The notes: a model not told the origin generated them from the sequence alone. DNA of 64,000 bases from Giardia intestinalis (GCA_000002435.2 CM018791.1), one strand, 5' to 3'; shown: positions 5,683 to 55,581, numbered from the stretch's first letter. Numbers and translations are program-made.

Positions 5683-5693
5683 TAACAGATGGA

Positions 5694-9899: not shown

Positions 9900-10034
9900 G
9901 TGTGTTTCCTACCCGCAGAAACTAAGTGTCGACACCTACGAGGTGATTAGTAGCAATCTAGAGGGCACAGCGCTTGACCTAAAGACCAATATGGCTTTGT
10001 GCCAGTAATTTTATTGACCGCTCTTGATTGGCGG

Positions 10035-13000
10035 ATGGCCGAGAACTGGTTTGATGCCGCCCGTCAAGGACAGTTCAACCGTCTCTGTTCGCTATCTGCG
10101 TCCTGTATTAAGTCCAGAGACTCTAGCGGAAACACCGCGCTGATGCTTGTGGTACAGAGCGGACACACTGAGTGTCTCAAGCTTCTCGAGGAAGAGGCCA
10201 CAATGACAAACAATTCTGGGCTTACAGCGCTTGCCATTGCCATAATGTGTGGAAACAATACGGCGTGTGCCTTCTTGGCGCCGATGGAGGCACACATAGT
10301 TTTGCCGTCAAAGCTCTCCATGCTGATGCTGGCAGCAAAGTTGGGAAACTGCGATGCGGTGAATTGTGTGGTCCCCTATGCACAAGAGGAGACTAGTACT
10401 TGCTCTGAGACAGCATTGGGCCTTGCCGTTCAAGGAAACCATCTTGAGTGTGTCCGAACCCTTTTGAACAGGATGCCGTACACTGTCTCAGACATATATA
10501 CTGTGCTAAGCACCTCTAATACTGATATTAAGGTCTTACTGCTGGAGCGATGTGACTCGTTGCTGGAGTATGACATGAGTGCCTCAAGGAAGTCTATTGA
10601 GCATGTGCCCTTCCTCCGTGAGCAATACGATCAGCGAATAGCATTCCTTAAGGATATTATCTACTGTCTGAAAATGCGTTCACAAGAGCAGAGCAACCCT
10701 TATAACACAGCAACAGATTGCATTGACATGTCTCAACTACATGAACTTAATAGACACATAAAGGATTGTCACGCGTATATTCAAACTCTTAAGTGTGACT
10801 TTTCTAAATTACAACAGGATAAGAAATCTATGCAGGATGGCTATGAAGAAAAGCTTCAACGTATGCAAAAGATATACGCCAGTTCAATTGGTTCACTGCA
10901 AGCGAAGCTTCATACTAAGGATCTCAGTAGCTTTCATACTAGCGATTCCACCAGAGAGTGCAGCAAAGTCAATACTGTGTCCCACGAATCTGTGACACAG
11001 ACATCTCAGTCTTTCCTGGTGGAAGGAACTACTCAAACAGAGAGTCACTCATGTAGAGAAATTGCCATCGGTGATGTGCATGGTCCTGTAGGGGCAGTCT
11101 CTTGGGGAGGAGGGCCTGCATTTTTGGCAGAGGCTGCGCCTTTTCATTCACAATTTATGGATGCGTGTATCCAGACTAGTCCACTAGAACGTTCATTGAG
11201 TAGCGATGTTCCTCGTTCTGACCTATCTGAAGCTGATCACGTTTCTCCTGACGCCTCATTAGCCCAAGATGATAGTAGCCTTCAACAGCAACTGCTTGAA
11301 AAGACGGCAGAAGTGCAAGCCCTCTCAAATGAGCTCGCTATTATGCAGAGCACAATTGAGCACATATTTGTCACCCAGTCGCGCGAATTGTCCGCAAAGG
11401 ATCTTGAACTGGAGCAGGAGATAGAAATATTTACCGAGCGCATTTCGACGCTCAGTGAGGACAATCTTAGGTTGGAAAAGCAAAATAGAACCCTTCAGGA
11501 AGAAAACACCTTACTCTCTGAGAGAATCAAGAAAGTGGAGAACACAAACGAGGATTCTAGCGCTATCCCTGCAGATTCTGTTACTCGTTTGCCATCACCT
11601 TCTGTTAATGACGACCTTGGTATTGCTTTTCCGCACAGAGACGAAGCAGGAATACAAACAGATCCTTCTTACTGTCTTGTATCTGTTAAGATAGGAGACG
11701 ACAGAGCAATAACAGAGCCTTTGCTCCCTCTGCAACAAGCCTGGCTGGTAATCCCTGGTCAAAGAAAAAGCCCAGCCGACTCCCTAACTCCACTTCCTGT
11801 TCTAGATGTTACGCATCGCTCCTGCCAATCTTGTATGGACACCAATGAGGCCTGCTGCCAGGCGGTTGTAATAGATAACACCACGGTGGCTTTGCGTCAA
11901 GAGATTGAGCTTGCATGCCAGCAAGTTGAGGAGTTTACCGATAGAAGAGCTTCCAGGACATCAATGTTTGTAGAGTCAGCAGAGAAGATGCTGAGCACAG
12001 AAGACCCCGGAGAGGTCATTACTTGCAATCAGTCTGATGACAGCGCGCTCGTGTATAGGATAGAAAAGCTTGAACAAGCGCTGAGAGACAAAGACGCTGA
12101 ACTCTCACTTGCCAACGATAAAATTGCACGATTAGAAACCATTGAGACAAAGTGTACTACTCACTCACACTCTAAAAAAGATGAGGCTGCCTTAGTTCTA
12201 CCATCTAGTCAAGCACGGAGCGATACAGAGTGCGCGCAGCTTCTTTCAGCTGTATGTGTTCCCTCACCACAAGCCAATCTCCTATCGATTTCTCCCTCAT
12301 CTATTGAAGAAGAAAATCGAGAGCTGCGGAATCAGGTTGAGTCACTGCGCAGACGAATGATTCAACTCACACATTCGTCACGCAAGTCCATAGCACCCAT
12401 CATAATGGCGTCAAACACACTTACATCGGCATCTTCTAAGCTGTGTCAACTTGCACAAAGGTTGAAGGAGCTTCTAGATAACCCCCACAACACGGCACCC
12501 AAAGTTGATGACAAGACACTTAGCTTTATCGAAGAACTTACTACCGAAATTTTGGAGTATTCTACGTCTATACAGTCTGCTCTGCAAGACAGTGCCGCAG
12601 CTGGACCTATGCAAACACCTTCAGTACATCAGGATCTTCTTCTGAGCGACGCTGTAACTCTATCTCAAGACAGTACCAATACAGATTTAATGGAGGCTGC
12701 CATACTAGACAATGTAGACGTGGCCTCACTTTTCCTGAACCAAGTGGGCAGAAGAAACGTGGACGGTGAAACGGCACTCATGATTGCGGCGAAGCACAAC
12801 AGCCTTGAAGTGGCTAAGCTTCTTGCACAGCACGAGGCAAACTGTGTTCGAAAAGACGGCATGACAGCCTTAGCCATTGCACTGTACAACAAGAACCTGG
12901 ATATGGCTATGCTACTAAGTGATTATGAAGGTCCAAGTAACAACCTAACGAGTGACTCTCCAGGCAGCACTGCGAGACCCATCGATGCACTGATTCTTGC

Positions 13001-13574
13001 AGCTAGACACAATGATGTCATCTCAACGTGGACCCTACTTAAGACTCACGCCCGTTACCAGGATGATCAGGGAAGGACTGCTCTTATGCATGCAGCCGAA
13101 CATGGGTTTGACATTATTGTGCACCTGCTGGCCGGGTCTGAGGCAGGGATGCAAGATGTTGATGGATACACAGGGCTTATGATTGCAGCAAATTTGGGGT
13201 ACACCCTAGTCGTAACCGAACTCCGTAACTGTGAGGCAGGAATGCAATGTGCACGTGGATATACAGCACTGATGTATGCTGCAGCTGCAGGACATAAGGC
13301 TGCAGTGGCTGCCCTAGCGCCTTTTGAGGCTGGTATTCAAACAAGTGTATCGAAAAGAAATACCACCACCAGCCCCACTACGGGCTACTCTGCAGATGAG
13401 ATAAGTGATACTACTGGAATAACCGCGCTTATGTTGGCCGTGGAGGCAGGGTCAGTTGATTGTGTGAATGTACTCTGGCCGCTCGAACACCATATCACTG
13501 ACGCCCAGGGGATGGCAGCCATTCACTATGCTTGCTCTGAACCTATGAGGAACTTGCTTCGCAGCTACCAATGA
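10035..13574 (+). CDS. Ankyrin - coiled-coil - ankyrin protein (21.1-like), about 1179 aa
   Basis: The track ORF begins at GTG 9999. The first ATG is at 10035 and gives MAENWFDAARQGQF, the family-typical N-terminus. N-terminal ankyrins (GNTALMLVVQSGH, GLTALAIAIMCGN) are followed by a long coiled-coil middle (EQEIEIFTERISTLSEDNLRLEKQNRTLQEEN). The C-terminal ankyrin array includes GETALMIAAKHN, GRTALMHAAEHG, GYTALMYAAAAGH and GITALMLAVEAGS. Confidence 0.82.
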   Translation: MAENWFDAARQGQFNRLCSLSASCIKSRDSSGNTALMLVVQSGHTECLKLLEEEATMTNNSGLTALAIAIMCGNNTACAFLAPMEAHIVLPSKLSMLMLAAKLGNCDAVNCVVPYAQEETSTCSETALGLAVQGNHLECVRTLLNRMPYTVSDIYTVLSTSNTDIKVLLLERCDSLLEYDMSASRKSIEHVPFLREQYDQRIAFLKDIIYCLKMRSQEQSNPYNTATDCIDMSQLHELNRHIKDCHAYIQTLKCDFSKLQQDKKSMQDGYEEKLQRMQKIYASSIGSLQAKLHTKDLSSFHTSDSTRECSKVNTVSHESVTQTSQSFLVEGTTQTESHSCREIAIGDVHGPVGAVSWGGGPAFLAEAAPFHSQFMDACIQTSPLERSLSSDVPRSDLSEADHVSPDASLAQDDSSLQQQLLEKTAEVQALSNELAIMQSTIEHIFVTQSRELSAKDLELEQEIEIFTERISTLSEDNLRLEKQNRTLQEENTLLSERIKKVENTNEDSSAIPADSVTRLPSPSVNDDLGIAFPHRDEAGIQTDPSYCLVSVKIGDDRAITEPLLPLQQAWLVIPGQRKSPADSLTPLPVLDVTHRSCQSCMDTNEACCQAVVIDNTTVALRQEIELACQQVEEFTDRRASRTSMFVESAEKMLSTEDPGEVITCNQSDDSALVYRIEKLEQALRDKDAELSLANDKIARLETIETKCTTHSHSKKDEAALVLPSSQARSDTECAQLLSAVCVPSPQANLLSISPSSIEEENRELRNQVESLRRRMIQLTHSSRKSIAPIIMASNTLTSASSKLCQLAQRLKELLDNPHNTAPKVDDKTLSFIEELTTEILEYSTSIQSALQDSAAAGPMQTPSVHQDLLLSDAVTLSQDSTNTDLMEAAILDNVDVASLFLNQVGRRNVDGETALMIAAKHNSLEVAKLLAQHEANCVRKDGMTALAIALYNKNLDMAMLLSDYEGPSNNLTSDSPGSTARPIDALILAARHNDVISTWTLLKTHARYQDDQGRTALMHAAEHGFDIIVHLLAGSEAGMQDVDGYTGLMIAANLGYTLVVTELRNCEAGMQCARGYTALMYAAAAGHKAAVAALAPFEAGIQTSVSKRNTTTSPTTGYSADEISDTTGITALMLAVEAGSVDCVNVLWPLEHHITDAQGMAAIHYACSEPMRNLLRSYQ

Positions 13575-13754
13575 CCTCTTACATAGATATGAATTAATAC
13601 AGATCATTGTACTAGCAATCTGTCTATAGAGCAGTGCAGGGGACTCTGCCAGAACTATTATATACACTAGTAAATCAAGGTGTACCATAGTCGAAGGGTG
13701 CCATAGCTCTGTCAGTTTAACAACAAAATTCTTGGGCGAAGATTTACTCTGAAT

Positions 13755-16700
13755 ATGGGGGATTCTTGTGCGTTTTCCTGGTTCCAGGCTGCGGCAACAG
13801 GAAATCTGGAAGTGATCCAGGCGCTGAAGGAGCAGTGCTCTGGTCTCCGCAATGAGGATGGCGAGACAGCACTCATGCTTGCTGTGCGCAATAACGCAAT
13901 GAATGTCGTGGAAGTTCTTTTGAACAGCGAAGCTAAGCTCACCAACGAGGATGGGTATACCGCCCTACTCATCGCAGCAGAGGAAAACAATTCGTTTGCA
14001 TGTTCTATCCTTCTAGCAGCGGAAAGGGACATATGTCTCAATGATAACTCAGATGCGCTAATTTTAGCCACCGAGGCAGGAGCTATGGATGCTATCTGCA
14101 TTTTGGCGCCTGGATGGCCTGTGCGGAGAACAACTGAAGGCATTGCTGCTATCGATATAGCATCCAACGAATCCAATCTCAAGGCGGTCAACCTGCTGCT
14201 ACAGGGGCAAGACCTCACTTGCGAAGACGTAGAAAGGGCTATGCTGCATGCAAATGAGGATGATGATAACTACGACAGTATCTGTTCCGCATTGCAAGGA
14301 TACTTAGTGTCCCTCGGCGCCCGGTCTTCTACCCCGGGTCGTGACGTTCCACTAGAGCTGTCAGACTATGATGCTGTGCCCGATGCTATTCAGTATTGTC
14401 CATCACTGCCGCAGGATAGCCTTCCCCTCGCCTACTCTGCTCTTGACAATACAGATGTGGCTATGACGAAGATATCCTTGGAGGAGAGTGATGATATTTC
14501 CAAGGCGATATTAATGCCGGGCGCTGTTACACCGATTAGCCAGCAACTTAATGCAGATCTGCAGGAAGTAACCCCAACAGAGCAGAGATGTAAGCCTATT
14601 ATCGACGAACTTGAAGGAGAAGCGTCGTCTGATGAAATACAGCCAGATCCCACGGAGTTTTATGAAGAAAAACGTCTGTCAGAAGGCCTGGCTTCATCCA
14701 CAGTTTTTCAGTTAACCAACATGATCCAGGAGCATAATCCAATGAGTGAGCTTGTTAAAATTATAGATTGTAAGGATGCAGAAATTCAGGAGCTTAGATT
14801 GCTGATTGATACACTACAAAATAGAAAACCTATCTCAGATGACGCTCGATTCTATTCTACAGGTCAGTCTGCATCTCAGGAAGCCCCTAATTTCCCAGAA
14901 GAGCCCCCTATAGTTATCTCAGCTACTACCAGCATAGCCCTTAGCACCATAGATACACTGCGATCGCGCATTGCTGAATTAGAAGGCAAATTGGCAGAGC
15001 ACCCGCCTACTCATGAGCTTGTCGATACAGAGACACAGTATTCTGTCAACACAATTGTATTTAGTGCTACGGCGGATCAAGCCGATAAGTGCTTAGGCTG
15101 CAATGTAGAAACGACTACACCAAAGGAAATAGAGCAGATACTCCTTGAAAACTCTCATCTATCTGCCAAACTACAACAGGCAGAAAACGAGGTTATGGCG
15201 TTGGGTAGATGCCTCACTGATGCCATTGCTGCAAGCGATAACGTCGAAGCCAATTTGATCCTTCAGGACTTTGCACACCGAGAACGGATACTTATTGACT
15301 CATATGTGTCTCGGATTGAAAACCTGCAAACCAGTATGGACATGTTCATAGGTATACAGAAGAGGAAGGCGAAAGAGTCGGAGGCGTACTTCCATGCGCA
15401 GTTAGAGGAGATAACAGAACAGAACACGCTAGCTAATAAGGCAATACGGAATCTAACCTTACAGATAGAAACATCTAACTCGGAGTTGCAGGAGCTGAGA
15501 GGGACTATTGCATACTTAAACGAGGAAAATGCGTCTTTGAGCGATGCGCTTAAACTGGCAAAAGCCGTACAAGAACAAGTTTCCAATGAGATTGCTGGCT
15601 CTGCCATTAATATCACAACAACGTCTGTTACAGTCCAGACTGAACCCACTTGTGACTCTGTGCCTGGTCCTGACCTCAGCCCTGACAATGTCACAACTAT
15701 GCATGATTTGCCCAAATGCACTACTCAGAAAGAGCTTGATGAAGCTATGCTTAACGCTATCTTGAATCAAGCTCTTTGTACTACAGATTATTCGGGTCTC
15801 TTGTCAGATACCGTGCTGTTTGCTATTGCCCCTGATTTGGAAATCACAGTGAGCAACGTTTTTCAAGCAGTCACCTGGTTTTATAATGAGTCTGAGCAGA
15901 AGGAGCGGCGTCTTTCAGAAGCGGAAGAAAAACTCGAAGTGATGGCTAATCTTTGCGAAAACCTCTCTGCAGAGTTGAAAGAGAAGTATAGCCTGATACT
16001 AGATATTTCACCGGATGGCACCGGTGAGTACACAATATCCTGTGCAGAGCCTCTTGGCAATCCAAGGGGGCACCAGGGCGAGATATCTGATCATCCAGAT
16101 AGCCTTGTTTTGCAGCCCATCATCCCAATAGAGCAATCAAATTCTTCAGATGTATCTCTGAAACCCCTGCAGTCGCATAGTGATGTACATAGTTTACTAC
16201 AGGTTGAAGACCTGGAGCTCCCTAGTCTACCTAAAGCTGGGAGTCCATCTAAGAGCATTGAGATATCCTTCGACAAAGATCTATCGGCATCACCTCCAGT
16301 TCATCTGCAAGTTCCTCTCATCTCTATAAACAAACCGGAGAAAAAGACAACCTCTAAGCCAAAGCCAGTTAACAATATTCCCATGTTAGTGGAAGACGAA
16401 ACATCTTCTCTTATGCTTCCATCGATCCACGCTGGCGAGTTTCGAGCAACGAAGCTAAAGCAAATTGGGAACGATATTTCCCCAACGACCACGCATGCTG
16501 ACCGCACCGACATGCAGCGAGCTCATGATTTGCAAGAAAGAGCGTTGCAGCTCTCTCACGACGCAGTTAGCCCATACCTGACTCATAAAGAAGAGCCTGC
16601 TCCTATCCTAGAGCAAAACAGCAACCAGGGAGATGATACCCCACTGATAGCCGCTGTCCTAAAGGGTCAGAATTCTGAAATACGAAGATACTTACAATAT

Positions 16701-17582
16701 GCAGGAAGGTTCAACGGAGATGGTGTGACAGCTCTGATGATAGCAGCCATGCGTAACAATCTTGAGGCCGCTCAGCTACTTGTGGAGTACGAGAAGGGAC
16801 TAACAACTGCCGACGGTTCGACTGCCCTGTGCCTGGCTTTGCTCAAAGGAAACATGCCAGTTGCAAAGTTCCTCACTCCATATGAAGGTTTGGACTTTTC
16901 ACATGTCTCTTCAAAGGGTCGTCGTTTCACAGAGTTAATGCAGGCAGCGGATGAAGATAATATAGTGGCTGTTTGGTGCCTTATCCCTCACCAAGGTGGC
17001 CTTAGGGACGAAGAGGGCTTCACTGCTCTCATGTACGCCGTACAGGCAGGCCACTATGAAGTGGCACGTATTCTTTATGAGCTCGAGGGACGTGTGCGAA
17101 ACGTCAATGGGGAAACGGCTCTGATGCTTGCAGCTGCCTCTGGGTTTACCCGCATTGCTAACATGCTAGTGATAAAGGAGGCAGGAGAACGAGATAATCA
17201 AGGAAGAACAGCCTTGATGCGTGCGGCGATTTATAATCATTGTGATGTGATTCGATTATTGCTGCAAAAAGAAGGCGGTATCCAAGATAGCCGGGGCGAA
17301 ACAGCCCTAATGTTTGCTGCAAAGGCTAATAACCCCGAAGCAGTACGGCTCCTTTTAGATAAGGAAGGCGGAAAGAGAATGCTTGTGAAACAGCCTGGCC
17401 GCAATGGAACACAATTGCGAGGGCCAGGATATACGGCGTTAATACAAGCCGTCAGAAAGAACAGTATTGCATGCATTCCTCTACTCTTGAGTAGAGAGGC
17501 CGGCTTCAAAGACGCAGAGGGACGGGCACCAATTCTTTTTGCAAAGACAAAGGAGACAAGAGACTTGCTTCTCAGGGAATAG
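13755..17582 (+). CDS. Ankyrin - coiled-coil - ankyrin protein (21.1-like), 1275 aa
   Basis: ATG at 13755. The N-terminus is MGDSCAFSWFQAAATGN followed by ankyrins (GETALMLAVRNN, GYTALLIAAEEN). A central coiled coil includes IENLQTSMDMF..LQIETSNSELQELRGTIAYLNEEN. The C-terminal ankyrins include GVTALMIAAMRNN, GFTALMYAVQAGH, GETALMLAAASGF, GRTALMRAAIYNH and GETALMFAAKAN. Stop is TAG at 17580-17582. Confidence 0.85.
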   Translation: MGDSCAFSWFQAAATGNLEVIQALKEQCSGLRNEDGETALMLAVRNNAMNVVEVLLNSEAKLTNEDGYTALLIAAEENNSFACSILLAAERDICLNDNSDALILATEAGAMDAICILAPGWPVRRTTEGIAAIDIASNESNLKAVNLLLQGQDLTCEDVERAMLHANEDDDNYDSICSALQGYLVSLGARSSTPGRDVPLELSDYDAVPDAIQYCPSLPQDSLPLAYSALDNTDVAMTKISLEESDDISKAILMPGAVTPISQQLNADLQEVTPTEQRCKPIIDELEGEASSDEIQPDPTEFYEEKRLSEGLASSTVFQLTNMIQEHNPMSELVKIIDCKDAEIQELRLLIDTLQNRKPISDDARFYSTGQSASQEAPNFPEEPPIVISATTSIALSTIDTLRSRIAELEGKLAEHPPTHELVDTETQYSVNTIVFSATADQADKCLGCNVETTTPKEIEQILLENSHLSAKLQQAENEVMALGRCLTDAIAASDNVEANLILQDFAHRERILIDSYVSRIENLQTSMDMFIGIQKRKAKESEAYFHAQLEEITEQNTLANKAIRNLTLQIETSNSELQELRGTIAYLNEENASLSDALKLAKAVQEQVSNEIAGSAINITTTSVTVQTEPTCDSVPGPDLSPDNVTTMHDLPKCTTQKELDEAMLNAILNQALCTTDYSGLLSDTVLFAIAPDLEITVSNVFQAVTWFYNESEQKERRLSEAEEKLEVMANLCENLSAELKEKYSLILDISPDGTGEYTISCAEPLGNPRGHQGEISDHPDSLVLQPIIPIEQSNSSDVSLKPLQSHSDVHSLLQVEDLELPSLPKAGSPSKSIEISFDKDLSASPPVHLQVPLISINKPEKKTTSKPKPVNNIPMLVEDETSSLMLPSIHAGEFRATKLKQIGNDISPTTTHADRTDMQRAHDLQERALQLSHDAVSPYLTHKEEPAPILEQNSNQGDDTPLIAAVLKGQNSEIRRYLQYAGRFNGDGVTALMIAAMRNNLEAAQLLVEYEKGLTTADGSTALCLALLKGNMPVAKFLTPYEGLDFSHVSSKGRRFTELMQAADEDNIVAVWCLIPHQGGLRDEEGFTALMYAVQAGHYEVARILYELEGRVRNVNGETALMLAAASGFTRIANMLVIKEAGERDNQGRTALMRAAIYNHCDVIRLLLQKEGGIQDSRGETALMFAAKANNPEAVRLLLDKEGGKRMLVKQPGRNGTQLRGPGYTALIQAVRKNSIACIPLLLSREAGFKDAEGRAPILFAKTKETRDLLLRE

Positions 17583-17735: not shown

Positions 17736-20700
17736 TTATACGTGACACTTCAGTATCGAGCGAATTATCTTTACCAGGTTTCCAGTTGCTTGGCTATCAG
17801 ATTCAGTTACTGTAAGCATAATGTGTTCAAGCTTGTTACTCATGTCAACATACCCAACATTAGGGCGAGACACAACGTCCCCACTATATGCTTTATCAAT
17901 GATTAATTGGTACTCCGGTTGAAGTAACACAAGAAGGATGTATTCAATACGCTCTATGCACTGAAGACAATTATTTTCATCCAGGGTGTCATTACTACTA
18001 AAGCTCGTAAGCGCAAACAAAATGCCATCGAAAAGAGGAATTACAGAGCTACCAATGTCACGAGTAACTGTTAGAAGCTGGGAAGTGACAGCGCCTCCCA
18101 CACCCACAGTTGCTCCGGTAACGCCAGAAAGAGAGTAAATTATATACTCAAGCAAGCAACTGACGGCAGAAGAGATAGGAGGGATGAAGGCCGCGGTAGG
18201 TAAAGGATAGTAGGATATCCCCTGCTGCATTGAGGATTGAATTGGGGGAACGGTCTGGCCGAGTATGTCCGAAGTCACGCAAAGAAAATTGCAAAGGCTC
18301 CTCACAATTTCGTTACTGTGGACACCATCAGCGAAGACAATGGCTAAGCACTTGTCCACCTCTCCTAACACCAGAGTCAGTATGAGTGGCAATGGGCTTT
18401 CTCTGCAAAACTTTATTCCAGGTTGGACTGAGGCCTTCAGAGACATTAGTATGTGAATATTGGAAATGATATTGGGGACAATAGCCGTGTAGAAGTGAGA
18501 GGGGACAAGGCTCTTGGTGTTTTTCTGGGTGAGACCGCTTTTCTGATGTCTATCAGGAGTAACAGACACAATAGTGGCAAGCATCGACAAAAACGCATAG
18601 CCCACGGAATGGATACGAAACAGAAAGCTGGACATAAGGGCATTGTATTGGCTGGTTGTGATAATCTCGCCAACGGCGCTCTTGCCAGCGGCCAGTTCAT
18701 AGATCTCCTCGAGTGAATTTGTACCATCTACAAAGAAACTACGAAATGTCTGATCGATTGAATCTGTCCCATCAGCCATTCTCTCTCTTAAAGTATTGAA
18801 GGAAAGAAGCTTAAGCAGCTCATTCCAACCAGATCCTTCCTCAACTAGACGGCCCACATAGGACTCAATAAGCAATTGGTCTCTACACCAATTCGCAAGC
18901 CTGGCAACCAGAAGTAATAGCCCGCGAACAAACAGAGTGCCGGCTGGGGTGATGTTGTAAGGCAAGATACCTGCAGCCATTCCTGTTGATATGTGATCGG
19001 GCGCATTCGTCTGCTGGAAAGCTCCAGCAAGTTCTGGCACATCTGCTAGTGATCCTAGTTTATCCACTGTTGCTGTTCCCAGTGGAGCCACTGCCAATGC
19101 TTTGAAGTGAGACTTAGCGGTATCAATCCTGCGGCTCATGGCCACAGATTGCGTTACGAGCGATGTAGTTTTGAGAGGCGCAACTAAACTAAACAGCGTT
19201 CGCCCAATTCCTAATACTGTTTCAAACAGGTCTGTCATTGTCCCCTGATTAACAAGTCTGTGCAAGAATTCGGTGAACAGAGTAGATACCTCTTCTGTGA
19301 CAGACGAAAATGCAAGCAAAATGTCAATCAGCTCAATGGTGCTTTGAATCATTGTAAGCGCAGCATGCCCTGTATATTCTTTGATCTCTGGGCTTAGGAC
19401 TTTGCTGCTGCATGTTCCAACGGTAGACATTGCAATTCTGAAGGCGTCTGAAAAGTAGGACTGAACATTCAACTCTGAAGACAGCTTTTCAAGAAAACTG
19501 ATCATGAAGGCTCCACGCTCTGATGCAACGTTTGCAATGTGACAAATGGTTTGCATTACACTTGCCGTCGCACTGAAAGCATGCTGCAATGAACACTCGT
19601 TATGATCGGGGACGATGTTGGCCAGAACACGGACCGAAAGCTTTAGCCAATTGAAGCAGGATGCACTCAAGAAAAATATATCGCCGGAATCAGCGCTGCA
19701 TATCTGCTGCTTGATAAGAACAGCTGCTTGCTGGATTGCAAATAGCATCTCGTCGAGAATTTCCGGGACTATATTTGTGAGGATACGATCTTTAACGTAG
19801 ACATAGCAATTCAAGGGCACGATAGACGAGACTAGATATGTGTTCATGAGAGCAGACAAGGGAATGACTTTACCACAGTTGGAGAGGAGGCCTGCTCGAA
19901 TGGAGTCACAGATAGTCCTGTAGGCTCCTGACTGAAGATTGTTAAGAGCACGGAGAAAGGCAGTGAATCCTTCCATTAAACAGGCGTTGTTGTTGATGAG
20001 AACTGAGTCACGCATTACCTTTTCCCTTTGATCCTGAGTAAGTGGCGATAAAATAAGCTGAGTCCGAAGCTTTGTTTGACTTACGAGTGGAGCGTATCGC
20101 AGCCCTTGGCCTGTCAAATTGGAAACCGCTGGTAAAATGGCGTGTTGAGACACGTCAGAAAGCTCTGGCTTAGGCGTGTCGGAGAGTATTTGCATACACT
20201 CGATGATGATTTCGTAGAGATTAAGATAGTCTGTGCCTGTGTTTGCTGAGAAGGCTTCAGCAGCTGCCATTGTAATTACTTGAATTGCGTCGTGTGAGAA
20301 CGAATCGAATTTGGCAGGAGTCCTTGGTGGGCGCATTTTCTCCCTATCTGCTGGAGGAAGCGTTTCAAGAAGTCTATCTAGGCTATCCTCATTACATTGT
20401 GGATAACAGAGGGTGCCAATTACAAGCCCAAAAAGGCCACTGATAAGTTCAGAAACCGTTATGTCACGTACAAGATTGCTAGAGTTAAAGATAATATGAA
20501 GGTATATCGTCATCAATCGCAGGCATGAAGCAGTGGCAAACAGCACAGCAGTAGTTTTGTTCATAAGCTGCAAGTCTGTCTCGTCTCTCACAGGGTCCCC
20601 CATAGCCCCGTTATTCAAAGCCGCGTCTTGAAGCCGTCGTGCTCGCCTTGCGATCAAGCCTGTCTTTATGAACAGATCAGTGAAGAATTCGCCTCCGAGA

Positions 20701-23700
20701 TCAGTAAGGACGTGCATTGCATCTTGTGACTGTGGTGCTTGGGGCCCTACAAAGGTGTATTCCAGAAATTGTGAGAGAAGATTGTAACCATGCTCAGCAA
20801 CCCCTGGGTAAAGCCAAAGGCTATCATCATTGCGCTTCAGGAGGGTTTGAAGGGCATGATATAAAGATGTTGTGCGGTCCAATCTGAGCATGCTTCGGTG
20901 CTCTACGACGCGACGGGACTCCTCACCCAGAAAGAACAGCTTAAGAAGCCGGGGCGATGGCGTCCAAAGAATCCTGCTTGAAAGCAAGCTAGTTTCCGAT
21001 GGTAGCTCGCATGACACAGCCACCAGGAGAGCCTCAGCACAAGTTGGGCTGTGTAGGAAGCTATGTCGAGCACGAATAAGCATCTCCCTAAATGAGCATG
21101 ACCCTTCTATTTCACGCGCAAGTGCATCCGAGCCCATAGACTTGCGCAGCTCCAAGAGAAGCACTTTCGCTGCGTTGTGGAGGCTGCTCGTACAGAAGTG
21201 GTCCAGAAGACAGAAAAGCAGTAGAATGAATGATGATGTCCCCATTCTAACTGAGACTTGCTCTCTGTAGACAGTGACTCGGTTAGCCGTAGCATACTTT
21301 CCAGTGGTATCCTGAGCAGCGTAACGACCTGGTAGATCCCCGTCATATGGACATGTGGCTCGAGAGTTTATCAAAAGGTTTATCGCGTTGGTGACGTTAG
21401 GAATAAGGAACGTCGGATGCCTTGCTAAAACAAGAAGTCGTGCAATGAAGAGAAGGCTGCTGATCACAGACTGCTCTGATGACTCTGGGGGTGTCTGAAT
21501 AAGGGGCTGAGTATTCACCAGAGTATAGATGTGCTGTGAATGCAGCGCAGCAATCGCAGAGTTGGAGACAAACATTGCTGTGGTAGAGAGAAATTCGTGA
21601 TCGGAGAGGAGAATATCCATCATTGATTCAGCGAGAATTGAAAAGTGATCAAGAATGAGAACTTCTGAAATCCCTATGAGAAGATCCTCGTCGGTAGATG
21701 TCAAGGATGAACGCAGACAGATATTAAAGAGCTTAAGGATGCTATCAAAGAGGTGCAGGAGACTACTATGCTTGTTCAGGGTGCGAAGTACCGCAAGAAG
21801 ATTGGTAGACTCGTTATAATTCCGATCGCTCGAGGATAAGTCGCTTAGAACTATCAGTGATATCTCCCTGGCGACTGTGCAAACAGAACGATGCATGTAC
21901 TCAACTCGGACCTTTGCATGGATGCACAGGGACGACGACAAGTATGACTGAAGAAGATCAATCAGTGCAGATTTCCCCCCGATAAAAGATGAATATATGA
22001 TAGAAGTTATCATGTCTTCCAGCGCATGCAGTGGGGTCGCCAACTCCACACTACTAAAACCACCTGCTTCATAGAGGGGTCCTGTTTGGAACGTTATTTC
22101 TGTTAAAGAACTACATATGGTAGCTATGTCTGGTGTGAGGGGGGTGCTAGCCAAGCCTCTAAGAAATATAATAGACTCCGTGGAGTTGGCGCTGGCCAGA
22201 AGAGAGAGTGCCGCCTCCAAGAGTCGTAAATATCGCAGGTTTGTTTGAGCTTCCAAAATGTTATTGTATTTGGGATGTCTGGTAGCAGGGTCGATCGTTA
22301 TGGTGAGAGTCACGGCCAAGCGCAAAAGGACGGAGAAAGCAATCTGAGATACAATCTCTGGATTTATGTCGTAAAGAGCCAGGGTTCGAACGGATTGTTC
22401 CAAGATAAGAAGATCGAAATCGGAGGTGCTCGTCAATGGTGTAAGGTTCGTAGTCAGAGTCTTGAGAAGCTGGTTTCTCGTTGTCTTTAATGTTTGAGGA
22501 ACATAGTCAGACTCGTTCTCAAAAGAGATGACGTCCCTTGCAGTCAGAATTGCAGTAACATCATCAGGTCTTACAAGACCTGGAGCCGATCCTCCTCGGC
22601 CCTCGTAGTTCACGTGCACGCCAGACACGCTGATATGCTGGATCCCAAAAGCAGTCTCCCTAACCATTTCTACTGGCGCATGTTTAGCATTAGACCTCGG
22701 AGCAGGTGAGAATTCATCTTTTATAAACAGGTCTGCACCACCGATTGTGATGATAAGCTTATTGATAAGGTAAATGCTGAATGGTGCAGCGTAAGAGGTC
22801 ACAGCATTGTATATCTTACTATTTAATTTGGTAGACACCATGCTAATATCAAATCCGCCGTACCCTACAGTTTCCTGGCCATATGCGCCAATGTGAGCAG
22901 CCTTCTGCGAGTTAACAAGATCAGCCAATGGTTTGGTGAGGGTTGTGTCTGCTGTATTTCTTAACAGCGTCTTCATGCAATTAACTCCGTAAGCAGGACA
23001 GTGAGCAAGACCCTGGGTAATAGAGATAGCCCCTAGGATTTGGCCAGGAGTGTCCAGCTCTGAAAAAATCCATCCCAGTATAAGGGAGACGATATTATCG
23101 CTATTGAGACCTCGAAATGCGTGATCTCCGCCAACGGCAAGCATGCATCCGACGCAGGCCATAAGTCGAGAGCAATACATGTGCATGTTTGGGAGCTCAA
23201 CAGCTCCAAGTGTCATCCCCAAATGCCCAGCACTGTGAGCGCCTCCCCCAAGCATTGGCTCTAGGCTTCCTGCAGCAGTGGCAAAGTTGTGCCTATCGTA
23301 GCGACTTATTCCAACGTTAGCGATACTTTTCCGTTGACCGTGGGAGCTCTGAAGTGCATCAATCTCAGACCGCTCGTAATCCAGGCACTTATCCATCAAA
23401 AAGCCTACAAGTTCATAGTACGTCCGTGCCTCCTCGAATCTGCACTGCTTAACGATAGGATCCATCCAGCTGAATGTTGTTCCGAAAAGAGCCCCCAGCG
23501 TGTTATACAAAGATGGCAAAATCGCCAGAAAATCGTCATGAACAAGTGTGCACAAACCGTCGGTAACCTTGCCTAGGCTCACAGTTATAGGTGGAACAAA
23601 GCGGAGAGTTCGATCTGTCTCTAGATAAAGAGAAACACCGGCCATTGCCAGACGCAGGACCACATCTGTGAATTCCGTCAAGGAGATCTGATCCAGTAGG

Positions 23701-25028
23701 TAATCCCTATATTCCGCTTCGTTGGAGGCATTTATGCCGGTCATTGGGTTGTTATTACCAGGGTCATCCATATGTTTCACGTGGTAACAGATCCTCGCAA
23801 AGTTAATAAATACCCCAAAAGATGGCGCTGGAAACTCTGCAATGTGAAGAATAGGCTTTACGGATGTATAGTCCAACAGGGAGCTTATAACGTTGTCATC
23901 CATCAAATGGCGGGAGAGGTACGTTCTAACGAGGCTCAGCTTTTCCTCAAATTCAATTACTGAAGGGTATTCTTTAGCGCCCGGCTGACGATGAACGGGC
24001 TGGGCAATACTGGTGGCCACGCGGCCAAAGGCAGTCTGCTTCTCCTGTTCTGCAAAGAGCTGGTTTCTGCTCAAAGACCCTAACTTCATAGTCTCTTTCC
24101 GTGCACGTAGCGCAGGATCAAGTTCTTGCTGGCACAGTTCGGTAAATGTAAGTTGAACTATCTCTGCAAGACTCTCCTGCGAATATGACGGCTTGAACGT
24201 AGAGAACACACAATACAGCCAGAAGAATGCAGTACGTGCAGCGCTGCTCGTGGCGGCAGTGGACATAATGGGAATCAGGTCACAAGCATAGAGGTTCCGA
24301 GCACTCTGTACAGCTTGGTCAGGCCCGGGTAGCTCAGCACAGTTAACGTAGGCCGAGACATACGTCACAGAAAGGATATGCGTAGCCATCGTAACGTTGC
24401 TCATCACTCTCTGAAGGACTACCGGAAGTGCATAGAAGCATTTGTGTAGCTGCTCTAGGACGGCCTCACTAGTCTGAGCAAGACGGCAGCACATTGCCAC
24501 GAATTGCGCAGACGGTCTTTTGGCCGTGGACAAGCAATACAGAACGATTGATGCGTGCCTCAGATCTTCGGCTACTAGCTGGGCAGTCAGAAGTTGTACT
24601 GGGGAAGGTTGGGCAAGGACAGCTGGTGTAAGGACTGTACCCTGTCCCGTTACTAGACTGGTAACAGAATCGACTAGCCGAGTGGGAAGGTTGCTTTGCC
24701 AGATCTCTGTCAAACAGGTAGCTAAGTGGGTGTTGGAAGGAGATCCTTGAAGAGCATGGCAGAGAGATATAAGGGCTCTATATGCATGGGCACGTAGTGA
24801 GAATTTTGCTGCTACAGAAATGGCTTCGTCTGAAAGGCCGGCCTCTCTCCCCTGTTCCTTTACTTCGTCAGATATTTGTGGAGAAAGGCCGAGATCGATG
24901 TGTCCCAGAAGCGTCTGCGGCAACCTCTGCAGTGAGGGTACGTGGGCCTCGATGTCCTCTGGGTCCAGCTCTCTAATACTCTTGAATAGTGCACAGCATT
25001 CTGAGTAATACACTAGATCTCCGTCCAT
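17736..25028 (-). CDS. Large hypothetical protein, 2430 aa, predominantly alpha-helical and leucine-rich. No catalytic motif was recognised.
   Basis: Uninterrupted 7.3-kb ORF with ATG at 25028 and TAA at 17736-17738. The composition looks like HEAT/ARM solenoid sequence. There is no Walker A, kinase, WD or ankyrin signature. Assigning a function needs a profile search. Confidence 0.7.
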   Translation of the reverse strand: MDGDLVYYSECCALFKSIRELDPEDIEAHVPSLQRLPQTLLGHIDLGLSPQISDEVKEQGREAGLSDEAISVAAKFSLRAHAYRALISLCHALQGSPSNTHLATCLTEIWQSNLPTRLVDSVTSLVTGQGTVLTPAVLAQPSPVQLLTAQLVAEDLRHASIVLYCLSTAKRPSAQFVAMCCRLAQTSEAVLEQLHKCFYALPVVLQRVMSNVTMATHILSVTYVSAYVNCAELPGPDQAVQSARNLYACDLIPIMSTAATSSAARTAFFWLYCVFSTFKPSYSQESLAEIVQLTFTELCQQELDPALRARKETMKLGSLSRNQLFAEQEKQTAFGRVATSIAQPVHRQPGAKEYPSVIEFEEKLSLVRTYLSRHLMDDNVISSLLDYTSVKPILHIAEFPAPSFGVFINFARICYHVKHMDDPGNNNPMTGINASNEAEYRDYLLDQISLTEFTDVVLRLAMAGVSLYLETDRTLRFVPPITVSLGKVTDGLCTLVHDDFLAILPSLYNTLGALFGTTFSWMDPIVKQCRFEEARTYYELVGFLMDKCLDYERSEIDALQSSHGQRKSIANVGISRYDRHNFATAAGSLEPMLGGGAHSAGHLGMTLGAVELPNMHMYCSRLMACVGCMLAVGGDHAFRGLNSDNIVSLILGWIFSELDTPGQILGAISITQGLAHCPAYGVNCMKTLLRNTADTTLTKPLADLVNSQKAAHIGAYGQETVGYGGFDISMVSTKLNSKIYNAVTSYAAPFSIYLINKLIITIGGADLFIKDEFSPAPRSNAKHAPVEMVRETAFGIQHISVSGVHVNYEGRGGSAPGLVRPDDVTAILTARDVISFENESDYVPQTLKTTRNQLLKTLTTNLTPLTSTSDFDLLILEQSVRTLALYDINPEIVSQIAFSVLLRLAVTLTITIDPATRHPKYNNILEAQTNLRYLRLLEAALSLLASANSTESIIFLRGLASTPLTPDIATICSSLTEITFQTGPLYEAGGFSSVELATPLHALEDMITSIIYSSFIGGKSALIDLLQSYLSSSLCIHAKVRVEYMHRSVCTVAREISLIVLSDLSSSDRNYNESTNLLAVLRTLNKHSSLLHLFDSILKLFNICLRSSLTSTDEDLLIGISEVLILDHFSILAESMMDILLSDHEFLSTTAMFVSNSAIAALHSQHIYTLVNTQPLIQTPPESSEQSVISSLLFIARLLVLARHPTFLIPNVTNAINLLINSRATCPYDGDLPGRYAAQDTTGKYATANRVTVYREQVSVRMGTSSFILLLFCLLDHFCTSSLHNAAKVLLLELRKSMGSDALAREIEGSCSFREMLIRARHSFLHSPTCAEALLVAVSCELPSETSLLSSRILWTPSPRLLKLFFLGEESRRVVEHRSMLRLDRTTSLYHALQTLLKRNDDSLWLYPGVAEHGYNLLSQFLEYTFVGPQAPQSQDAMHVLTDLGGEFFTDLFIKTGLIARRARRLQDAALNNGAMGDPVRDETDLQLMNKTTAVLFATASCLRLMTIYLHIIFNSSNLVRDITVSELISGLFGLVIGTLCYPQCNEDSLDRLLETLPPADREKMRPPRTPAKFDSFSHDAIQVITMAAAEAFSANTGTDYLNLYEIIIECMQILSDTPKPELSDVSQHAILPAVSNLTGQGLRYAPLVSQTKLRTQLILSPLTQDQREKVMRDSVLINNNACLMEGFTAFLRALNNLQSGAYRTICDSIRAGLLSNCGKVIPLSALMNTYLVSSIVPLNCYVYVKDRILTNIVPEILDEMLFAIQQAAVLIKQQICSADSGDIFFLSASCFNWLKLSVRVLANIVPDHNECSLQHAFSATASVMQTICHIANVASERGAFMISFLEKLSSELNVQSYFSDAFRIAMSTVGTCSSKVLSPEIKEYTGHAALTMIQSTIELIDILLAFSSVTEEVSTLFTEFLHRLVNQGTMTDLFETVLGIGRTLFSLVAPLKTTSLVTQSVAMSRRIDTAKSHFKALAVAPLGTATVDKLGSLADVPELAGAFQQTNAPDHISTGMAAGILPYNITPAGTLFVRGLLLLVARLANWCRDQLLIESYVGRLVEEGSGWNELLKLLSFNTLRERMADGTDSIDQTFRSFFVDGTNSLEEIYELAAGKSAVGEIITTSQYNALMSSFLFRIHSVGYAFLSMLATIVSVTPDRHQKSGLTQKNTKSLVPSHFYTAIVPNIISNIHILMSLKASVQPGIKFCRESPLPLILTLVLGEVDKCLAIVFADGVHSNEIVRSLCNFLCVTSDILGQTVPPIQSSMQQGISYYPLPTAAFIPPISSAVSCLLEYIIYSLSGVTGATVGVGGAVTSQLLTVTRDIGSSVIPLFDGILFALTSFSSNDTLDENNCLQCIERIEYILLVLLQPEYQLIIDKAYSGDVVSRPNVGYVDMSNKLEHIMLTVTESDSQATGNLVKIIRSILKCHV

Positions 25029-25096: not shown

Positions 25097-25798
25097 TTAC
25101 TGAACCAGGTCCGTTGTCTTGATGGTGATGATATCTGGATAGCTCCTGATCAAGTCCTCGATCCCTTCCTGAGAAATGCGCGCAGCAGGCGGCTGACCAC
25201 TCTGTTGTGGTGGCTCCGGAGGCATGCTGAGACGTTGCTGGCGTCTTATCTGCTGCTCCATGGTAAGAGGCTTCAAGGCCGGTGGGAAGATAAGCGCCGC
25301 AATTGGGCGGTAAATGCGACTAAGAAGAACCTGCACCACGGTCGTTGAGACGTTTCCGGGCTTGTAGGATGCCCCACTGAAAATATTGAGAGCCCTGGCA
25401 ACGATAGAATCGGGTATGTTGACACGGCAAAGAATGCTGTTTTCTCTGAAGATGCTGAAGAAAAGTCGCACTGCAAAGCTGGGGATAAATGCGAGCCATT
25501 TTGCATGAGAGGGCTGCTCTACGGGTTTGAGTAGAAGATCAAAGAGCTCATTTTCCTGGGCTATATAGTAGGTGTTCAGGACTCTATGACGGTACGTGCC
25601 TCGCTCCTCCTTGTTCATATCCTTCTTTATCTGCTCAAGTTTCTCCTGGTGAGCGGATACTTCCGTTTTATGTGTATGCCGTGTATAGGCCATGGCCAAC
25701 TCTATAACAAAGACAAGCGGGCCGATGAACATGATGTTTTGCTTATGCTCCTTTGTCTGCATAGACCACCAAGCCTGTATGGAACCCACGATCCCCAT
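25097..25798 (-). CDS. Small membrane protein, 233 aa from the first ATG. Possibly Get1/WRB-like (CHD5 family, tail-anchored protein insertion receptor), at low confidence.
   Basis: The track ORF starts at TTG 25867 and the first ATG is at 25798 (MGIVGSIQAWW). The predicted order is a TM segment (IMFIGPLVFVIELAMAY), a charged coiled coil (HQEKLEQIKKDMNKEERGTYRHRVL), then a second TM segment (HAKWLAFIPSFAVRLFFSIF). That second segment resembles the WRB TM2 region (KIKWVISVAFYVLQAAL). A third hydrophobic segment follows, then a Pro/Gln-rich tail. Confidence 0.5.
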   Translation of the reverse strand: MGIVGSIQAWWSMQTKEHKQNIMFIGPLVFVIELAMAYTRHTHKTEVSAHQEKLEQIKKDMNKEERGTYRHRVLNTYYIAQENELFDLLLKPVEQPSHAKWLAFIPSFAVRLFFSIFRENSILCRVNIPDSIVARALNIFSGASYKPGNVSTTVVQVLLSRIYRPIAALIFPPALKPLTMEQQIRRQQRLSMPPEPPQQSGQPPAARISQEGIEDLIRSYPDIITIKTTDLVQ

Positions 25799-25845
25799 TT
25801 TAAAAATCGTTTTTAGGCCAGAGCTAAGACCTAAAGACTGGGTGT
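25799..25845. promoter_or_regulatory. 47-bp divergent intergenic spacer with an AT-rich element (ttttaaaaatcgttttta), a presumed bidirectional core promoter
   Basis: It lies between ATG 25798 (minus) and ATG 25846 (plus). An AT-rich tract directly abuts both start codons. Very short AT-rich initiator regions upstream of ATG are known for diplomonad genes (established knowledge). The sequence is not matched to a specific motif. Confidence 0.4.
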
Positions 25846-28800
25846 ATGGCGTCTCTTCTTGTTCCAAAAGCTTTCTCTCACCTTACCAAGGGGCAAGATG
25901 GAACGTCCACTTTCAAAAGGGTTTCTTCTCCCATCAGATCAAAGTCAATCTCATCATACCTAGCCGCTAATACACGTTATTTAAAAGTCGCGCCAGCCTC
26001 TCTTCCCAAGAAGCTGGATCTTGATAGCTTTATTAACCAGGAAAAGGTTCGCACTAGTAATGTGCGAGATCTGGAGACCATGGCCGAGCTGATGAACCTG
26101 GCCCCGAGTGCAACGGTGGATCCAAAGGAGGTGAGAGCAAACTTCGTTTTAGAACAGATACTGGAGCAAAACCTGGAGGTATGTTCTGGGAAGGGATATA
26201 TGAAGCCCGGAATTACCGAGCATGCTGATCAGTGGCACGAAGTAGACATTGTTGGAGTTTCCAACGATGCGTTTCGCGTTCTGTTTCCACAGCTCGAGAT
26301 GTTTCGGCAGGCAAAAATACATAATATTATTATTGAGGGTCTTCAAGTGAAGCAAACCCCCTTGACTCTGGACACAGATATGGAAGGCACAGTGGAAAGT
26401 TCAGGGATTTCATTAGATTGTCTCACAGGAGATGACTTGATGGAGCTTTTTAAGCTATCCTTTCGGTCAGAAGACAAAACTTTCTTCAGGTCTCCTACTG
26501 GGGTTTACCATATTCGTAACGACAAAGCCGTATCAGCGTTTTTGGAATCTAGAAAACGAGACCGTGAAGCCGTGCTGGCTGCTTCTAGAACTGCAGTGGA
26601 ATCCCAACACTTCCCAGAGCACACGTATCCAAGTACCCTGGACCTATCGGGCACCGATGAGACAATGGACATGCAGTTAAAAGATTTGGAGGTAACTGCC
26701 ACAAGAGCTACTGGCGTTAATCCAGAAGATACCTCCGATCTATCAGTCTTTACCATCACGTCTAACCCTAGAGATGAACTACAGCGTTCTAAGCCACATG
26801 AGTTTCAGTTCCGGCAATTCCTTAAGGAAGACACACCTTTAATATCTCTTCCCACGGGAGAGCCTCACAGTTACAAGAGCAATCTCAGGGGTTATTTGGA
26901 AGCCTCAGAAACGGAAATATCATCTTCCCAACTGCAAAACAGACAGTATGGAGCTACCAAAGGATACCACGCATCTGTCCTTCTATCATCCACAGCAAAT
27001 CAGACTAATATCACAAGTGCACTTGTGCCTGCAACTAGTGATCGCAAAAAAGATCAGATACCAGCTGATGACTCAAGCAGACTTGTCAGCGAAAGCTTCG
27101 ACATCCTAAGCACCCTCGATATCCTAGAAAGACGAGACAAGGAGGCCGTGGCAATAGCATCCCCACCAAAGTTGGCCCACACAGAATGTGCACCAATAAT
27201 AAACACAACAAACAGCGCATACGCATACGCACACGCACACGCACACGAGTCATCAGAAAAGGTAGCCTTTCAGTATATCGACCGCAACAATCAAGTGATT
27301 GTGCGCGACATCAACGAGCAATTCCTTCAGAAGTTCTCCAGGATACACATCTATCAACGGATGAAGGAGAGCTTTGAGGCGGCGCTTAAAAGGCTAAACC
27401 AGCTTGTCGAAGAAAAGAGCACTGCTAATAGACCGTACTTGGACTTTCTTTCCACTGCATACATTGGGCACACTCTCTTCTATAATCTCAAAACGCGCTT
27501 GAGTGAAGACTACTGCATCGATTGCGTAGCTGAGATCGAGGAGCGTCGACTGCGTGTGAAAAATCGCGAACGAGACTATAATTTATTCATATCCACACTC
27601 CAGGCCATTAAAGACAAATCAGAGCAGCTTCAAGATATACGTAGCAAGTCTGTTTGCGGATTCACAACAGTGGTCACGGCCCCTCCTCTCCCCATCCTGC
27701 CGTCCATTTACAAGGAAGACCAAAAAGAGGACAAATCCGTTGCTAAAAGAGCCACTTTCTGTGCTGCATCTGCGCTGGAGGATGAGGCATCGGAAGAGTA
27801 CGTATTAACTTTAATGCAGCTTCGCCAAAGGCGGGAACGCGTATATGATCATTTTGAGAACATGATAGCGGGGCACAAGCAGGTGCGTTCTGCCGCAGTC
27901 GAGCTATGCTTGAGTGCCATTAATACTAGTCGTGTCAAGCTAGAAAGTCTTGTTAATCCTGCGCTTAAGCGTACAGCTCAGTTTGATGGCTTTGATGCTC
28001 TCGATAACCTGTACAAAAGCTACATCGATCATGCGCTGAGGACCGATTTTGCCACTGAAATTATTGAGCAAGCAGATAGAGACCCAAGCCACGAACTGTA
28101 CTGGTGTGCACGGCAACTCCTCCGACTCAAGCATTCCAGCTACAAGAACTATCAGAAGTACAAGTATCCTAGCTTCTGTCCTCATCGCCGGGAAGCCTTT
28201 GAAAATGCTCGTACGGCCTTGATGGAGAACAAGATATTTTGGGGGGCATCTGAGTACAAGCGTGTGTTCAGTGATCTCATGTCCACGGTGCAGGAGCATC
28301 TGCAATACCTTATACTCACCCCAGAGCTGCTTACACATCTTCAGGACACATTCATCCCGAAAATAAGTGATTATCTCTTTGCGAATATGGTTTTCCAGAC
28401 AGACATAGACAAGGACACTAAAGCTCTTCTCTCTAGACCAAGTACTGGAAGGGTCAATCTGCAGAATGCACTACAGACGCTCCCCGGCGGGGCCAGCCCC
28501 GATAAAATTTCCTATGCATCAGAAAGCTCTGTGCGAGCAGATAACGGCCATCAGAAAAGACCAAGAGAGGACCCCGAGGACCGTGATGTTAACGTCCAGG
28601 CCACCAATCAAACACTAAATCCTGTTCTCAAAAGACCAGTCAATCAAGAACTAACAAGTGGGGCAGACCTACCGATTCTCAACGCTGCCTACAAACCCAA
28701 GAATGCCTACGAATGGATTCAGCGTAGATACTGGCAGATTCAAAGCAACCGTGAGCAAGATATCTTCCGACGCAAAGAAGAACTGGCACGCCGAGACGCT

Positions 28801-55473: not shown

Positions 55474-55581
55474 TGAAGCAGATTTTGTATTTTTGAGACG
55501 GTTCACCGGCTGCCAGCCCAGTAAATATTTGGTGCAGGCAGCAGCCGGCCGTTTACTGACCTCGGCCCTACGGGTGGACAG

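Follow-up and report, generated by a model that had tools for sequence, protein, structure and literature searches.

What does the gene GL50803_28699 of Giardia intestinalis encode, and is its product the membrane receptor that the tail-anchored protein pathway of this parasite would seem to need? The gene lies at positions 25097-25798 of the stretch of DNA analysed here, hereafter the window (GCA_000002435.2 CM018791.1; 64,000 nucleotides), and an earlier note made from the DNA alone proposed that it encodes a diverged Get1/WRB, a receptor for tail-anchored protein insertion. The product is probably a highly divergent member of a known insertase superfamily. That it is an insertase of the Oxa1 superfamily we consider highly likely. 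The superfamily has an endoplasmic reticulum (ER) branch derived from archaeal Ylp1, with TMCO1, EMC3 and Get1 as its members, and within this branch a TMCO1-type identity has about an even chance of being correct. The superfamily call is supported because the predicted fold matches Oxa1-superfamily insertases and because the profile of the protein's family aligns co-linearly with TMCO1.

The existence of the gene, which the earlier note had assumed, is borne out by an exact database match and by homologues in Giardia lineages and more distant relatives. On the minus strand, an ATG at 25798 opens a reading frame of 233 amino acids that ends in a stop codon at 25097-25099, as taken from the list of open reading frames (ORFs) and the translation; the coding sequence with its stop codon thus occupies 25097..25798. 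The protein is exactly identical to GL50803_28699 / XP_001706938.1 / UniProt A8BHX1 of Giardia intestinalis WB, which is named 'hypothetical protein' in all sources, and its identifier is absent from the searchable text of papers. Homologues in other Giardia lineages show 78-93% identity, and five distant relatives, one of them named as Dysnectes brevis, a free-living fornicate, show 24-42% identity to the Giardia protein. Four of these five were retrieved with a profile from 1.84 billion representative proteins. The fifth, P0129, was the sole addition from a later word-indexed search with the family alignment, which brought no connection to a known family, and two metagenome scans for further family members found none. 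P0129 apparently stems from an uncultured relative; it is encoded on a gene-dense, 20-kb environmental contig (L001 7527-8441, JGI metagenome 3300010163 contig Ga0136175_10009976), with genes for a V-ATPase, a thiolase, eIF4E and a HECT ligase as neighbours. Across the ten sequences of the family R118 and S151 are invariant, R161 and N21 near-invariant. The best conserved motif, LNxFSGAxxYxPGNVS, falls in a predicted lumenal loop, while FFSxFR(E/D)N is conserved where the second hydrophobic segment ends and DLxxx[FY]PD[IV] near the C-terminus, the latter from Giardia to Dysnectes.

The predicted fold places this family in the insertase superfamily. AlphaFold2 (AF2), supplied with the 10-sequence family alignment, gave a mean predicted local distance difference test (pLDDT) score of 78.9 and a predicted template modelling (pTM) score of 0.59, with all five models between 75 and 79. 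The model has helices at residues 16-42, 46-63, 69-89, 97-117 and 152-170 and a strand-helix-strand loop between the last two. Its best matches in the PDB are almost all Oxa1-superfamily ER insertases. In the Foldseek search of the PDB, the TMCO1 chain 7tut_8 was the best match (E = 3.8e-3, probability 1.00, TM score 0.60) and the TMCO1 chain 6w6l_6, which is not listed in the other structure search, ranked second (E = 0.09); EMC3 chains had E values of 0.3-2, and Get1 came at rank 27 (E = 3.2). In both structure searches, human TMCO1 ranked first and Get1 came last among the three ER paralogues. The earlier note would have given up its proposal had there been no WRB/Get1/EMC3-like match or had some unrelated family matched better; neither was the outcome, as TMCO1, EMC3 and Get1 head the PDB matches. 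Further, several features that define the Oxa1 superfamily (Anghel et al. 2017, PMC5868721) are recognizable in the form seen in its ER branch, namely a core of three transmembrane (TM) helices, a hairpin between TM1 and TM2, and likeness to solved structures.

Profile comparison of sequences points in the same direction, and more narrowly. Among all compared sequences, human TMCO1 is the only one with significant profile similarity to the family. With hhalign, the family profile matched it at P = 3.8e-5 (6-sequence profile) and P = 3.9e-4 (10-sequence profile) in a co-linear alignment of 121 columns that pairs family residues 42-172 with TMCO1 38-163 and runs through the hairpin, TM2, the loop and TM3. 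At 37.7, the score lies above those of all 150 segment-wise, composition-preserving shuffles of TMCO1 (mean 15.8, sd 3.7, maximum 26.4), and the TM2-TM3 part alone scored 21.5, above 100 shuffles (maximum 17.4). HMMER recovered the same register as hhalign at P = 5e-5. Locally, the match is strongest in TM2, which aligns with TMCO1 'MFNSIF-DGRVVAKLPF'. By comparison, the hhalign scores against WRB, two fungal Get1 and two EMC3 sequences were 12-19, at noise level, with P of 0.05 or more, and HMMER gave P of at least 0.016 against WRB, Get1 of Saccharomyces cerevisiae and Chaetomium, and EMC3 of human and yeast. A calibration under the same conditions gave P = 0.03 for TMCO1 against EMC3 and P = 5e-3 for WRB against yeast Get1, both weaker than the match between the family and TMCO1. 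The reference human WRB is 100% identical to P0005 and 6so5_C, and the Chaetomium Get1 was taken from 8odu_C; the yeast Get1 agrees with 3sjb at residues 19-104 and reaches 136 bits to CHD5.

Could the resemblance in fold be convergence or an artefact, and the protein a lineage-specific membrane protein other than an insertase, such as a single-pass anchor that carries an amphipathic helical domain? Outside the family, no sequence match turned up among 1.84 or 5.8 billion proteins, hydrophobicity is low in TM2 and TM3, which carry Arg residues, and the alignment behind the model is shallow at 10 sequences; with five near-identical Giardia sequences alone, AF2 gave a pLDDT of 43, which is unusable. 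However, the sequence signal to TMCO1 is independent of the model and lies above every one of the 150 shuffles, and polar or charged residues in weakly hydrophobic TMs are what is expected of insertases with a hydrophilic groove (PMC5868721). We therefore regard a non-insertase as very unlikely.

The architecture of the protein agrees with an Oxa1-superfamily insertase. The earlier note had read the order as TM1, a charged coiled coil, TM2 and TM3, and this layout is correct because the hydropathy segments, the charged stretch and the counts of Lys and Arg agree with one another; the AF2 helices confirm it as well. Of the three segments in the hydropathy profile, that at about residues 22-38 is strong and those at about 99-117 and 152-172 are weaker, with a charged stretch between. 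TM1, residues 16-42 (25673..25753; this and the following features are on the minus strand), is delimited by hydropathy, AF2 and the contents of alignment columns and is the most hydrophobic segment, with its core at about 22-38. Near-invariant K19 and N21 precede that core, and a position in the middle of the helix is polar or charged throughout the family (E33 in Giardia; relatives have R or Q). The antiparallel helical hairpin, or 'coiled coil', comprises residues 46-89 (25532..25663) and is predicted to be cytosolic from the AF2 helices 46-63 and 69-89 (pLDDT 76-85) and from charge counts; both hhalign and HMMER align it to TMCO1 38-86. The whole linker from TM1 to TM2, by our own segment boundaries, measures 58 amino acids in the Giardia protein and the same in human TMCO1.

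TM2, residues 97-117 (25448..25510; hydropathy and AF2), is weakly hydrophobic and contains a polar position at 111 (R/K/Q) as well as S115; its FFSxFR(E/D)N end runs into a strand. A predicted lumenal loop follows at residues 118-151 (25346..25447), for which AF2 gives strands at 122-125 and 149-151 and a helix at 132-137, and which the family alignments also delimit. TM3, residues 152-170 (25289..25345; hydropathy and AF2), is likewise weakly hydrophobic, holds the near-invariant Arg161 within the helix and is aligned with TM3 of TMCO1. The predicted cytosolic tail, residues 171-233 (25100..25288), consists of a PPxxKPL motif, a basic helix at 180-191 and a low-confidence Pro/Gln-rich linker, as judged from AF2 pLDDT and helices and from alignments, and it is lineage-specific: the TMCO1 and WRB alignments contain nothing equivalent. 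It includes the acidic C-terminal motif DLxxx[FY]PD[IV] at residues 215-223 (25130-25156), defined by the family alignments and likewise lacking a counterpart in the compared TMCO1 and WRB; it is possible that this motif is a docking site for a cytosolic partner.

In the ten sequences, Lys and Arg together number 9-12 in the hairpin, 5-12 in the tail and 3-5 in the TM2-TM3 loop; the N-terminus has 1-2 in 8 of the 10, and 4-7 in the two with long or uncertain N-terminal extensions. Hairpin and tail thus sum to 16-24, whereas N-terminus and loop sum to 4-7 in 9 of the 10 and to 11 in P0126, in which the long N-terminal extension may be spurious. This distribution of charges fits a topology with a lumenal N-terminus and a cytosolic hairpin and tail. 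The topology so predicted is the expected one; the opposite one, which the earlier note had named as fatal to its proposal, was not predicted.

How secure is TMCO1 as the closest relative? A number of observations weigh against this narrower assignment. The similarity was established with a single TMCO1 sequence, the human one (188/188 residues identical to 6w6l_6). PF01956 (EMC3_TMCO1), to which human TMCO1 scores 160 bits, gave no match at E<=10 for the 10 members and 2 consensus sequences, and the search of PDB sequences with the family hidden Markov model (HMM) by hmmsearch was without a match, as was phmmer with the protein. The sole Oxa1-family match in Pfam points to another paralogue, as it is CHD5/Get1 in the member P0128 (E = 0.13; 12.5 bits, where the cut-off is 29.3). 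Reverse tests with single sequences were equivocal, with P = 0.002 for TMCO1 against P0128 and P = 0.001 for WRB against P0127. The protein itself also differs from TMCO1 in that TM2 and TM3 are low in hydrophobicity (Kyte-Doolittle about 1.4), the hairpin is roughly neutral (+9/-10) where that of TMCO1 is strongly basic (+21/-10), and the 60-residue, acidic-ended tail has no counterpart in TMCO1, the tail of which is short. Finally, the presence of Get3 and Get2 in Giardia implies a need for a Get1-type partner. In the family as a whole, the net charge of the hairpin ranges from about neutral in Giardia through +1 to +7 in the distant relatives, as compared to +11 in TMCO1, whose strongly basic hairpin and tail serve to contact the ribosome and which associates with Sec61 and a small partner subunit. 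Single family members compared with TMCO1, WRB, Get1 and EMC3 gave no signal on their own; the signal comes from the family profile only.

The last of these objections leads back to the proposal of the earlier note, that the protein is the diplomonad Get1/WRB orthologue, with a hairpin that binds Get3, and that it makes up, with Giardia Get2 (GiGet2), the tail-anchored protein receptor and insertase. A Get1-type partner is to be expected because Giardia has Get3 and Get2, and the organism reportedly has no ER membrane protein complex (EMC). The superfamily fold and the topology are the same as those of Get1. The CHD5 match of P0128 is well placed in the TM2-TM3 region (its residues 104-166 align with positions 98-158 of the 159 in the profile), the 'NAPPGSVS' of this member resembles 'NAPMGSVS' of Chaetomium Get1, and hhalign pairs the loop/TM3 motif with WRB 133-167 (P = 0.09). 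Get1 also diverges fast, to the extent that WRB misses yeast Get1 by phmmer at E<=10. Yet Get1 fared worst among the three paralogues in structure, and the profile scores against WRB, yeast Get1 and Chaetomium Get1 are 12-16, at a null of 15.8±3.7. In the comparison of the family with WRB, hhalign paired helices that are not equivalent (P = 0.48-0.66), and a 12-sequence Get1/WRB profile yielded P = 0.09-0.14 over 33-36 columns only. Among the matches listed for the human WRB search there were only vertebrates, so the Get1 profile is low in diversity. In Pfam, the Giardia protein had no family match at E<=10, and PF04420 (CHD5) in particular matched neither it nor the family consensus sequences at that threshold. 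The hairpin is shorter than WRB/Get1 hairpins, and the Get3-binding motif of the Get1 hairpin (D/Q-E/N-F/Y-A-K/R-W/Y ... R-K, as read from the human/Chaetomium/yeast alignment) has no counterpart in that of the family. The sequence likeness on which the earlier note had relied, between TM2 (HAKWLAFIPSFAVRLFFSIF) and TM2 of WRB, amounts to 3 identities in 19 positions, which is at chance level; neither hhalign nor phmmer aligns these segments, and the resemblance was rejected as evidence. What stands of the original assignment is therefore the Oxa1 superfamily, as seen in the top PDB matches, whereas Get1/WRB specifically is the least supported of the three ER paralogues. Overall, we judge a Get1 orthologue to be rather unlikely.

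EMC3 is the remaining paralogue. Like EMC3, and unlike WRB and TMCO1, the Giardia protein has a C-terminal cytosolic extension of ~60 amino acids that ends in an acidic helix, and its conserved TM3 Arg recalls the Arg of human EMC3 'GLRSIY'. However, the hairpin is much shorter than that of EMC3, the match to PF01956 is missing, and hhalign and HMMER comparisons with the human and yeast EMC3 references stayed at noise level (P = 0.02-0.4). Further, no EMC subunit was found in Giardia by Wideman 2015 (PMC4602282). An EMC3-type protein is hardly credible on this evidence.

If the protein is a TMCO1-type insertase, its mode of action may be pictured by analogy with the superfamily. A role of TMCO1 in the multipass translocon is described in PMC7505659 and PMC9630114. 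The conserved R118, R161, S115, S151 and N21 are located in or at the predicted TM helices, as is the polar position 33. The three helices would form a lipid-exposed, partly hydrophilic groove, to which R118, R161, S115, S151 and the polar residue in the middle of TM1 (33) would contribute. Through this groove the short lumenal segment of a substrate would pass across the membrane, while the TM helix of the substrate would partition into the bilayer. The cytosolic TM1-TM2 hairpin and the C-terminal tail would dock the machine that delivers the substrate; for a TMCO1-like protein this would be the translating ribosome beside Sec61, in a translocon for multipass proteins. We infer the ER location, the insertase activity and the docking partner of the GL50803_28699 protein from these similarities.

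For ER protein targeting, Giardia serves as a minimal model, and Giardia Get3 has been studied structurally. The GET pathway (for the guided entry of proteins with a tail anchor) has reportedly been identified in the parasite. The view expressed in the earlier note, that diplomonads have no confidently annotated membrane receptor, is partly out of date, as a Giardia Get2 construct (Fry et al. 2022) serves as an ER membrane marker in PMC11527388. Get1 is not mentioned in the searchable Giardia papers, a set that does not include Fry et al. 2022. According to Petrů et al. 2021, a review from a Giardia laboratory, Get1, EMC3 and TMCO1 are derived from archaeal Ylp1, and anaerobes have often lost ER Ylp1 homologues (PMC8662606).

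Against this background, the new element is an Oxa1-superfamily, TMCO1-like fold for a 'hypothetical protein' common to Giardia and distant relatives including Dysnectes. With GL50803_28699 the lineage has a concrete candidate for its non-Sec61 insertase, and both the retention of a ribosome-associated insertase in diplomonads and the identity of the Get2/Get3 partner become testable. One could go further and suppose that the TMCO1-like protein is the only ER insertase of the Oxa1 superfamily in Giardia and its relatives, serving Sec61/ribosome and GiGet2/Get3 alike, an idea we find quite unlikely. If this dual role were true, the function of Get1 would be performed by a TMCO1-type protein, with one Ylp1-like scaffold serving several delivery routes, and this would bear on the idea that Get1 branched off later, from a TMCO1-like ancestor (compare PMC8662606). 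Should a separate Giardia Get1 exist, the result would be an ordinary yet useful annotation of a fast-evolving orthologue.

The surroundings of the gene were also considered. A divergent intergenic spacer at 25799..25845, read from the sequence, separates the ATG of GL50803_28699 from the ATG (25846) of a 6973-residue ORF; counted between the two ATGs it is exactly 47 bp, the spacing given in the earlier note. It holds an A/T-rich run (TTTAAAAAT) immediately upstream of the GL50803_28699 ATG and may act as a putative bidirectional promoter. A form of 256 amino acids starting with TTG and reaching to 25867 was set aside as a mechanical ORF only, since it would overlap the ATG of the giant ORF. 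The annotation of Giardia DHA2 (P0131, 256 amino acids) is such an upstream-extended form, which would overlap that ATG on the opposite strand (25799-25867), and two more distant Giardia homologues (82% identity) begin four codons upstream (MIFKMGI…), where WB has Thr; the annotation of the start codon therefore varies among isolates.

Giant ORFs flank the gene on both sides, one of 2430 amino acids at 17736-25028 (-) and that of 6973 amino acids at 25846-46767 (+), the latter among the largest expected for the Giardia genome. Neither had a Pfam match at E<=0.01, and for the larger one no function is suggested by the data here. A protein-kinase ORF at 46717-48015 (-) is convergent with the larger of the two and overlaps its last 51 nt with its own 3' end. 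Similarly, an ORF at 55582-56736 (+) overlaps by 150 nt the 5' end of a 2006-residue ORF at 49711-55731 (-). The latter and two further ORFs, at 57399-59804 (-) and 62291-63973 (-) with 801 and 560 amino acids, have no Pfam domain at E<=1e-5. Four ankyrin-repeat ORFs of 1042-1401 amino acids stand in a row at 2554-17582, one of them with an N-terminal protein-kinase domain. The genomic neighbourhood was rejected as a functional clue, its members being giant domainless ORFs, ankyrin proteins and kinases.

Set beside the known systems, the Giardia protein shares most with TMCO1 (PF01956; PDB 6w6l, 7tut), having in common with it the three-TM core, the cytosolic TM1-TM2 hairpin, the length of the linker and the motif F-x-S-[IL]-F-[RD]-x-[NG]-R-[VI]-V-x-[KR]-[LI]-P at the end of TM2. 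The identity between the two is about 17%, and TM2 and TM3 are less hydrophobic in Giardia. Get1/WRB (PF04420 CHD5; PDB 6so5, 8cr1, 8odu), which with Get2/CAML acts as Get3 receptor and inserts tail-anchored proteins, shows a weak local likeness around the loop/TM3 motif G-S/N-V-S. The C-terminal cytosolic extension of EMC3 (PDB 6ww7, 6wb9) is similar in length, and EMC3 also has an Arg in TM3, but its hairpin is longer than that of the Giardia protein. With archaeal Ylp1 (Mj0480, DUF106) and bacterial YidC/Oxa1, the likeness lies in what is ancestral to the superfamily: the three-TM core, the cytosolic coiled coil and, putatively, the hydrophilic groove (PMC5868721, PMC8662606).
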